A DNA stretch of 64,000 nucleotides, from positions 24,779-88,778 of the forward strand of contig CAWECG010000002.1 in assembly GCA_963807605.1 (NCBI GenBank), read 5' to 3'. The DNA is from Candidatus Bathyarchaeota archaeon (GTDB lineage: Archaea; Thermoproteota; Bathyarchaeia; 40CM-2-53-6; RBG-13-38-9). How positions within the stretch are numbered: position 1 is the stretch's first letter; each line of letters begins with the position of its first letter. This document shows, one piece after another, positions 28,515-28,771 of this stretch. A program made the position numbers and the translations under genes. The notes below the pieces were generated by a model. It was given only the letters and a program-made list of their open reading frames with translations. It was not told the DNA's origin and searched no databases.

Positions 28515-28520
28515 TTTATT
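28515..28520 (+). promoter_or_regulatory. Putative TATA box of the tRNA-Tyr gene
   Basis: TTTATT about 25 nt upstream of 28545. Confidence 0.45.
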
Positions 28521-28557
28521 TGGATTCTTGTTTGAGTGACCTCTGGGTCCCGCGGAT

Positions 28558-28771
28558 CCCGCGGTAAGATGTAAATCAACATCCCGTAAGCTCAGCTTGG
28601 TAGAGCTTCCGATCACGCCAATAACGTGAGGAGACGCTGTAGAGTTGCACCTAGTGTGCGACCGTTCAGCCTATCAGGCTAACACAGATACCGGAGTGTC
28701 GCTGGAGAGCCCAAAGGACTCGGCGAATTCAAAATAGGCAGTTGCCTATGAAACTCCGGCCCGCGGGACCA
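28558..28771 (+). tRNA. tRNA-Tyr: tRNA-Tyr(GUA) with five introns: 28567-28589, 28612-28635, 28643-28689, 28706-28727, 28734-28754
   Basis: Removing five BHB-bounded segments gives a 77-nt cloverleaf CCCGCGG TA GCTC AGCTTGGTA GAGC T TCCGG CTGTAGA CCGGA GTGTC GCTGG TTCAAAT CCGGC CCGCGGG ACCA, with the archaeal Tyr identity elements C1-G72 and A73. Confidence 0.93.

Follow-up and report, generated by a model that had tools for sequence, protein, structure and literature searches.

An acceptor-strand copy in the leader of a bathyarchaeal tRNA-Tyr gene: a putative decoy for an acceptor-proximal intron

The tRNA-Tyr gene of this Candidatus Bathyarchaeota archaeon carries in its 5' leader an exact complement of the 3' end of its own tRNA, and a leader copy of this kind accompanies the intron at position 9/10 in every tRNA-Tyr orthologue in which that intron was found. 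We consider it probable that the leader acts in cis as a decoy strand that licenses the 9/10 intron; where transcription begins, whether splicing depends on the leader and in which order processing occurs are all matters of inference. The decoy interpretation agrees with each in silico test that was made and is strongly suggested by comparative data, and there is no experimental evidence of function.

Results

A copy of the acceptor strand in the leader

Positions at the tRNA-Tyr locus are those of the window, i.e. the whole stretch of 64,000 nucleotides that was analysed. They are collected in Table 1, together with related features of the same genome.

Table 1. Coordinates of the tRNA-Tyr locus, of three further tRNA genes with a leader copy and of processing components of the genome.
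Feature	Position	Strand	Description
TATA-like box A	28515-28521	+	TTTATTT; read from the sequence, promoter function inferred
Decoy strand	28546-28555	+	GGTCCCGCGG; exact reverse complement of 28761-28770
Spacer between decoy and C1	28556-28557	+	AU
tRNA-Tyr(GUA) gene, CCA encoded	28558-28771	+	C1 = 28558, A76 = 28771; intron 9/10; leader GGUCCCGCGG; 10 pairs with 3' end; read by hand, then by script
tRNA-Tyr exons (six)	28558-66, 28590-611, 28636-42, 28690-705, 28728-33, 28755-71		
Acceptor nt 4-7	28561-28564	+	GCGG; 5' strand of the central 4-bp helix H
Intron 1	28567-28589	+	23 nt; 9/10; relaxed HBh' motif
Intron 2	28612-28635	+	24 nt; 30/31; H CUUC/GGAG; inner helix UCACG/CGUGA
Intron 3	28643-28689	+	47 nt; canonical 37/38; H CUGU/ACAG; inner helix GUU/AAC
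Intron 4	28706-28727	+	22 nt; 53/54; H CGCU/GGCG
Intron 5	28734-28754	+	21 nt; 59/60; H UUCA/UGAA; inner helix UAGGC/GCCUA
3' acceptor strand	28761-28770	+	CCGCGGGACC; nt 66-72 with A73, C74, C75
tRNA-Asn-GUU	L017:1490-1655	minus	intron 8/9; leader ggtGCCGCCG, 10-nt spacer; 10 pairs
tRNA-Lys-CUU	L273:132-258		intron 9/10; leader GGCGGGCUU abutting G1; 9 pairs (7 Watson-Crick and 2 G.U, nt 67-75)
tRNA-Thr-CGU	L016:1490-1604	minus	intron 8/9; leader GCCCCGG, 7-nt spacer; 7 pairs
RNase P RNA	G000 C3:1057100-1057383		archaeal, full length, 183.8 bits; this genome
EndA paralogues (two)	C4:303386-303622; C3:661701-661937		about 188 aa each; this genome

The initial annotation had claimed that the leader is an exact reverse complement of the tRNA 3' end, and that it lies between a TATA-like box and nt 1. 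Both claims were confirmed. The decoy begins with GGU, the complement of A73-C74-C75, and continues with the same seven bases as acceptor nt 1-7 (CCCGCGG). Nucleotides 66-75 can pair with it over 10 bp, with nt 1-7 offering a rival pairing of 7 bp. In the orthologues the spacer has between 0 and 4 nt and is variable in sequence.

As a mismatched control, the leaders of 24 tRNA genes of this genome were compared with 3' ends not their own; no match exceeded 8, and matches of at least 7 were found in 11 of 516 pairs. The leader match in tRNA-Tyr is thus beyond chance, given its length of 10 and its recurrence in all intron-bearing orthologues (see below).

A tRNA-Tyr gene with five introns

The unspliced locus yields no tRNA call, neither by ARAGORN with and without its intron options nor by the Rfam model at the gathering threshold and at E<=10. 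After removal of five BHB introns, the spliced product has 77 nt and is called tRNA-Tyr(gta) by ARAGORN. The same five introns were recovered by a BHB-aware parser written for this analysis, and the exon sequence agrees with that of intron-poorer orthologues. The spliced tRNA contains the pair C1:G72 (C28558:G28767) and A73 (28768), which are the archaeal and eukaryal tyrosine identity elements. Two of its exons are as short as 6 and 7 nt. The gene anatomy proposed initially stands, except for the end of intron 1, which was corrected to the position given in Table 1.

A tRNA start at G28546, with the acceptor stem GGUCCCG/CGGGACC and the intron inside that stem, was also considered. It was rejected because the T stem CCGGC abuts CCGCGGG, so that three bases cannot be placed, and because the orthologues would then lack U8.

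As for intron 1, its central helix H pairs acceptor nt 4-7 with CCGU at 28584-28587, including one G.U pair, which bears out the earlier claim that the 9/10 motif uses these nucleotides. In the mature acceptor stem the partner of nt 4-7 is nt 66-69. The motif has two 3-nt bulges (UA|A and AA|G) and an inner helix of 5 bp (GAUGU/ACAUC). The intron strand of H, termed H', reads CCGY in the orthologues and once CCGA, and orthologues without the 9/10 intron read CCCGCGGTAGCTCAGC at this place. The outer exon-exon helix h is absent, with C1-C3 and the spacer not being complementary to C11-C13, so that the motif is a relaxed HBh' rather than a strict hBHBh'. By its anatomy, intron 1 can be classed as a putative BHB/HBh' intron; there is no RNA evidence for its cleavage and ligation. 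The presence of two EndA paralogues in the genome suggests the heteromeric type of endonuclease, which is known to cut relaxed motifs.

Co-occurrence of intron and putative decoy in tRNA-Tyr orthologues

Orthologues of tRNA-Tyr were collected from three sources. The DNA of 60 relatives was searched directly, and 401 genomes of the class were searched with a pattern that spans C1 to the D arm and allows a gap of 0-42. The third source was a metagenome scan (53 contigs) for which the 9/10 insertion was obligatory and nothing upstream of C1 entered the pattern, making it blind to the leader. A scan with an overly loose pattern gave mostly bacterial chance matches and added one archaeal gene (L106). 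After removal of duplicates, 59 genes with the 9/10 intron and 56 without it remained.

The co-occurrence is perfect, with 59 genes having both intron and decoy and 56 having neither. All 59 distinct intron-bearing genes contain the leader copy, with 7-10 contiguous pairs to nt 66-75 and a start 8-12 nt before C1. The copy was found in none of the 56 genes without the intron, where only scattered matches of 3-7 occur even with G.U allowed and in any register. Both states are present within three families: f5 (G027 with, G019 and G045 without), f6, here within one genus (G028 with, G020 without), and f27 (G127 with, four genomes without). Joint gain or loss of intron and decoy has therefore occurred three or more times, unless the two move as a unit. 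Lack of conservation of the leader with the intron, which had been named as a refutation of the decoy hypothesis, is not what we observe. Part of the co-occurrence reflects common descent.

The variation of the decoy fits a helix with the 3' strand. Internal changes in tRNA-Tyr are limited to C to U opposite G (GGUCUCGCGG, GGUCCCGUGG), and losses occur at the helix ends only, as in the eroded forms GGUCCCGC (abutting C1), GUCCCGCGG and UCCCGCGG. There is no true compensatory covariation within a family, since the 3' strand is invariant in each of them. A hairpin between the palindromic part of the decoy (CCGCGG) and nt 2-7 was considered and rejected, having a predicted probability of 0.0. Short decoys that abut C1 cannot form this hairpin with the palindromic nt 2-7, which points to the 3' strand as the conserved partner.

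A separate observation concerns genus g9 (L035:1720-1750, minus strand; L036, L225-L237), whose tRNA-Tyr orthologues have no 9/10 intron and have the acceptor strand CCCGGGG. Directly preceding the gene, the leaders at these loci share a conserved hairpin, GACGCGA...TCGCGTC.

Leader copies in other tRNA genes

The genome has 2.65 Mb in 5 contigs, and the Rfam model yields 19 tRNAs. It was scanned for a second acceptor-strand copy in tRNA leaders, and its tRNAs were then parsed with the BHB-aware script. The parser requires an encoded NCCA, U8 and a TTCRA T loop; it gave 24 confident genes, so the census is incomplete.

In four of the 24 parsed genes, namely Tyr, Asn-GUU, Lys-CUU and Thr-CGU, acceptor nt 3-6 or 4-7 take part in the central helix of an 8/9 or 9/10 intron. 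Each of the four has a decoy matching the 3' end of its own tRNA, and the four introns are unrelated in sequence. The spliced products are all accepted by ARAGORN, which mislabels two of the genes (the Asn gene is reported as tRNA-Ala, and the Lys gene is given a wrong intron). Among the remaining 20 genes, leader matches are of 2-5, except for Gln-CUG with 7. This amounts to 4/4 genes with an acceptor-proximal intron and 1/20 without one (hypergeometric p ~5e-4).

The relatives of the three further genes have the same pairing of intron and decoy. For Lys-CUU, 12 intron-bearing orthologues have a decoy (GGCGGGC followed by pyrimidines), and it is absent from 2 intron-less orthologues, the leaders of which are unrelated. 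For Asn-GUU, all 29 orthologues, from eight families, contain both intron and decoy; their spacers have diverged and one decoy reads GCCGUCG. Lastly, nine intron-bearing orthologues of Thr-CGU have the decoy, once as GCCUCGG. No decoy was found in intron-less Thr-CGU genes, nor in Thr-UGU paralogues with an identical acceptor stem, one of which is in this genome. This contrast between paralogues within one genome is the cleanest control.

The tRNA-Gln(CUG) gene (L365:73-203) has AGCTCGG 14 nt upstream, at L365:52-58 (G000 C4:321481-321487), which is a wobble-compatible copy of its acceptor nt 1-7 (AGCCCGG). As box A of this gene is far upstream, at -55, transcription would include the copy. 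The parse places three introns after mature nt 21, 36 and 57, none of them near the acceptor stem. As parsed, a leader copy without an acceptor-proximal intron counts against the decoy hypothesis. The copy may be a relic, it may reflect a mis-parse, or it may be due to chance, since 2% of the mismatched pairs match over at least 7.

A tRNA-Asp(GUC)-like gene of 252 nt with several introns, the parse of which is not confident, was seen at L366:23-274 on the minus strand (G000 C1:69922-70173). The sequence GGGGTCG, located 11 nt upstream, repeats nt 1-7 apart from a single wobble change, and only 3 of the 4 central pairs can form in a candidate 9/10 motif.

Position of the transcription start

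A box A-like motif (Y-TTA-W) was located in 52 of the 59 intron-bearing and in all 56 intron-less tRNA-Tyr orthologues. In the 56 genes without the 9/10 intron, the distance from box A to C1 is 33-36 nt, with a mode of 34. In the 52 intron-bearing genes, the distance from box A to the first base of the decoy is 27-32 nt (mode 31), with C1 about 9 nt further. From this spacing, the decoy begins at the expected transcription start, and it may form the very 5' end of the primary transcript, an inference from promoter spacing without RNA data. A start downstream of 28555, which had been named as refuting the hypothesis, is unlikely on the same grounds only.

Folding models with and without the leader

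Thermodynamic folding of the precursor with and without its leader was carried out with ViennaRNA. For tRNA-Tyr of this genome, the probability of the acceptor stem falls from 0.995 without the leader to 0.0 with it, and that of the central helix of intron 1 rises from 0.0 to 0.97. The decoy helix itself has a probability of 0.998. In the model, then, the leader sequesters the 3' acceptor strand and frees nt 4-7, as had been supposed initially. The same trend is seen from 37 to 70 C.

Among 58 distinct orthologues, the central helix reaches a mean probability of 0.69 when the leader is included, against 0.002 when it is omitted and 0.19 when it is shuffled, and the acceptor stem is close to 0 in all 58 when the leader is present. 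The switch is repeated in the Lys-CUU gene, where the probability of H goes from 0.005 to 0.87 with the leader. For Asn and Thr the leader abolishes the modelled acceptor stem, but the freed strand is not placed in H (probability close to 0).

The probability of H is an imperfect proxy, as it is low for introns 2, 3 and 5 of tRNA-Tyr in every modelled splicing order, though their splicing is obligatory. The model probabilities of the other four motifs were likewise uninformative about the splicing order, their values being low in every order.

With all introns removed, the prediction at 37 C still favours the decoy form (-41.4 kcal/mol) over the cloverleaf (-32.8 kcal/mol), by about 8.6 kcal/mol. 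The model thus keeps the decoy bound after splicing, and its release needs something that is not shown here. When the first three leader bases (GGU) are removed, the probability of the acceptor stem rises from 0.0 to 0.96 in spliced Tyr, and from 0.0 to 0.17-0.81 in spliced Lys. In the modelled precursor with the decoy bound, the true RNase P site lies outside any helix.

Discussion

Proposed mechanism

We propose the following sequence of events. The primary transcript probably starts at G28545/28546, and its first ten bases would be GGUCCCGCGG. Intron 1 would be cut by the splicing endonuclease only if nt 4-7 pair with the CCGU of the intron, a pairing that would exclude the acceptor stem. 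By capturing nt 66-75 (10 bp against 7 bp), the decoy would leave nt 1-7 free for the intron. Before splicing, the decoy helix (10 bp) together with the pairing of the 5' strand to H' (4 bp) would outcompete the acceptor stem of 7 bp. The precursor would in this way contain a swapped pair, with the decoy mimicking the 5' strand and H' mimicking part of the 3' strand.

Since the RNase P site would be without an acceptor helix and the CCA end would be buried, 5' maturation should follow the splicing of intron 1. A delay of RNase P by the bound decoy is an inference. The GGU bases of the leader could be a latch, the removal of which flips the predicted fold to the cloverleaf, and RNase P might remove this latch by reading the decoy helix, stacked on the T stem, as an acceptor stem. 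Both of these last steps are speculation. The intron 1 motif could also fold co-transcriptionally, at a time when the 3' strand has yet to be made, and the decoy may therefore help rather than be required.

A wider form of this proposal is tentative and less likely than not: that leader decoys are general and obligatory in intron-rich archaea for introns that borrow the 5' acceptor strand, with a latch (the complement of N73-C74-C75) cut first by RNase P and a second, final RNase P cut afterwards. The order would be splicing, unlatching and maturation of the 5' end.

Alternative readings of the leader copy

The element may pair with the 3' end and yet have as its main task the shielding of that end or the ordering of end maturation, and not the licensing of the splice motif. 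It could bury the CCA and the discriminator, prevent the unspliced precursor from being aminoacylated or attacked by RNase P or 3' nucleases, or maintain a folded, minihelix-like top half during displacement of the genuine 5' strand. That the decoy often reaches over A73-C74-C75 agrees with such a role, as does the helix it would form, stacking on the T stem like an acceptor stem and predicted at a probability of about 1.0 in every splicing intermediate. The Asn and Thr models, which lose the acceptor stem without gaining H, can be read in the same way. Shielding alone, however, leaves unexplained why the decoy is restricted to genes with 8/9 and 9/10 introns, when many CCA-encoding tRNAs of this genome have introns elsewhere. 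Many lineages moreover lack the extension over 73-75, while the core opposite nt 68-73 is retained with a single exception (L204, with 66-72 only). We hold shielding as the main task to be unlikely, though it is not to be set aside.

Another reading is that the leader copy is a functionless leftover of the origin of the intron, e.g. from a tandem duplication of the tRNA 5' end. Such a duplication is a plausible origin, and the 3' strand never varies within a family. As an account of the present state it is improbable. The copy has been kept across at least eight families in which spacers and flanks have fully diverged, its internal changes are only the wobble-compatible C to U, with no G to A, and no gene has lost just one of intron and decoy. 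The same design is also found in four tRNA families with unrelated introns. Finally, the Lys decoy GGCGGGCYY differs from a simple copy of GGGCCCG and contains the complement of G73-C74-C75, absent from intron-less leaders.

The element could instead act as DNA, as an initiator or a promoter-proximal site for protein binding. Its location at the expected transcription start and its first bases, which are purines, would suit this role. It is very improbable nonetheless, as the sequence differs among tRNA families, in each case matching the 3' end of its own gene, and is absent from intron-less orthologues with the same promoter spacing.

Lastly, the idea that the upstream copy is the true first exon, with the downstream copy inside a longer intron and no decoy at all, is hardly credible: in Thr-CGU of this genome GCCCCGG is followed by T, and one can formally draw a 38-nt intron whose central helix has 4 bp, but in Tyr U8 and A9 follow the downstream copy only, and U8 cannot come from the 3' junction because that junction varies (UAAG, AAAG, CAAG), many decoys are truncated or unlike the exon (GGUCCCGC, GGCGGGCUU), and Thr orthologues have A or C in place of U8 after the upstream copy.

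Relation to known systems

We regard the licensing decoy, for whose function there is no experimental evidence, as a new accessory of a known class, the non-canonical tRNA introns. Non-canonical and multiple HBh' introns are described from Thermoproteales and others (PMC4033280, PMC4090602), and intron 1 shares with them the 4-bp helix, the two 3-nt bulges and the inner helix. Lineages that cut relaxed motifs have two EndA paralogues, as does this genome. In those accounts (PMC4033280, PMC4090602) the motif is formed from exon and intron alone, whereas here the leader would remove a competing helix. The known maximum is three introns per tRNA gene (PMC4033280), which the five introns of tRNA-Tyr exceed.

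Complementary leader and trailer sequences are found in split tRNA genes (Nanoarchaeum, Caldivirga) and permuted ones (Thermofilum, Cyanidioschyzon) (PMC4090602, PMC3218864). In these as in the proposed decoy, a co-transcribed sequence outside the mature tRNA pairs so that the endonuclease can act. In split and permuted tRNAs, the leader pairs with the trailer, and the duplex carries the splice motif and is cut. The decoy pairs instead with the mature 3' acceptor strand, in a perfect helix of 10 bp without bulges, and is not an endonuclease substrate; it would act by competition and would have to be removed from the 5' end, presumably by RNase P. An interpretation as a leader-trailer helper helix of the split or permuted kind was therefore rejected, as the partner is nt 66-75 and there is no BHB in the helix. 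A full-text literature search, with two reviews, found no published decoy leader, and leader-dependent splice motifs only for split and permuted tRNAs.

Two further systems invite comparison. Attenuators and riboswitches rely on mutually exclusive helices, such as an anti-terminator and a terminator. They have in common with the decoy that one strand has two alternative partners, the choice of which decides a processing event. Here, by contrast, no ligand or ribosome is involved, and the switch would be reset not by a signal but by an irreversible cut, i.e. splicing and then removal of the leader.

In bacterial and yeast pre-tRNAs, pairing of the leader with the trailer or with the acceptor affects RNase P cleavage and the order of processing. 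As in the decoy model, the 5' leader hinders RNase P by pairing with 3' sequences, either in place of the acceptor helix or as an extension of it. These pairings are gene-specific context effects, with no tie to an intron and no conserved copy of the acceptor strand.

Significance

Splice motif and cloverleaf contest the same bases, and how the endonuclease gains access to introns in the structured parts of a tRNA is an open question. For acceptor-proximal introns, the decoy offers a testable answer, namely that the gene supplies a spare strand in its leader. In terms of annotation, a copy of the acceptor strand just upstream can flag tRNA genes that are missed by standard finders.

If the licensing decoy is real, it would be a new cis-element in pre-tRNA processing. 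It would predict an enforced order, with splicing before 5' maturation, and it would explain the persistence of such introns in single-copy essential tRNA genes.
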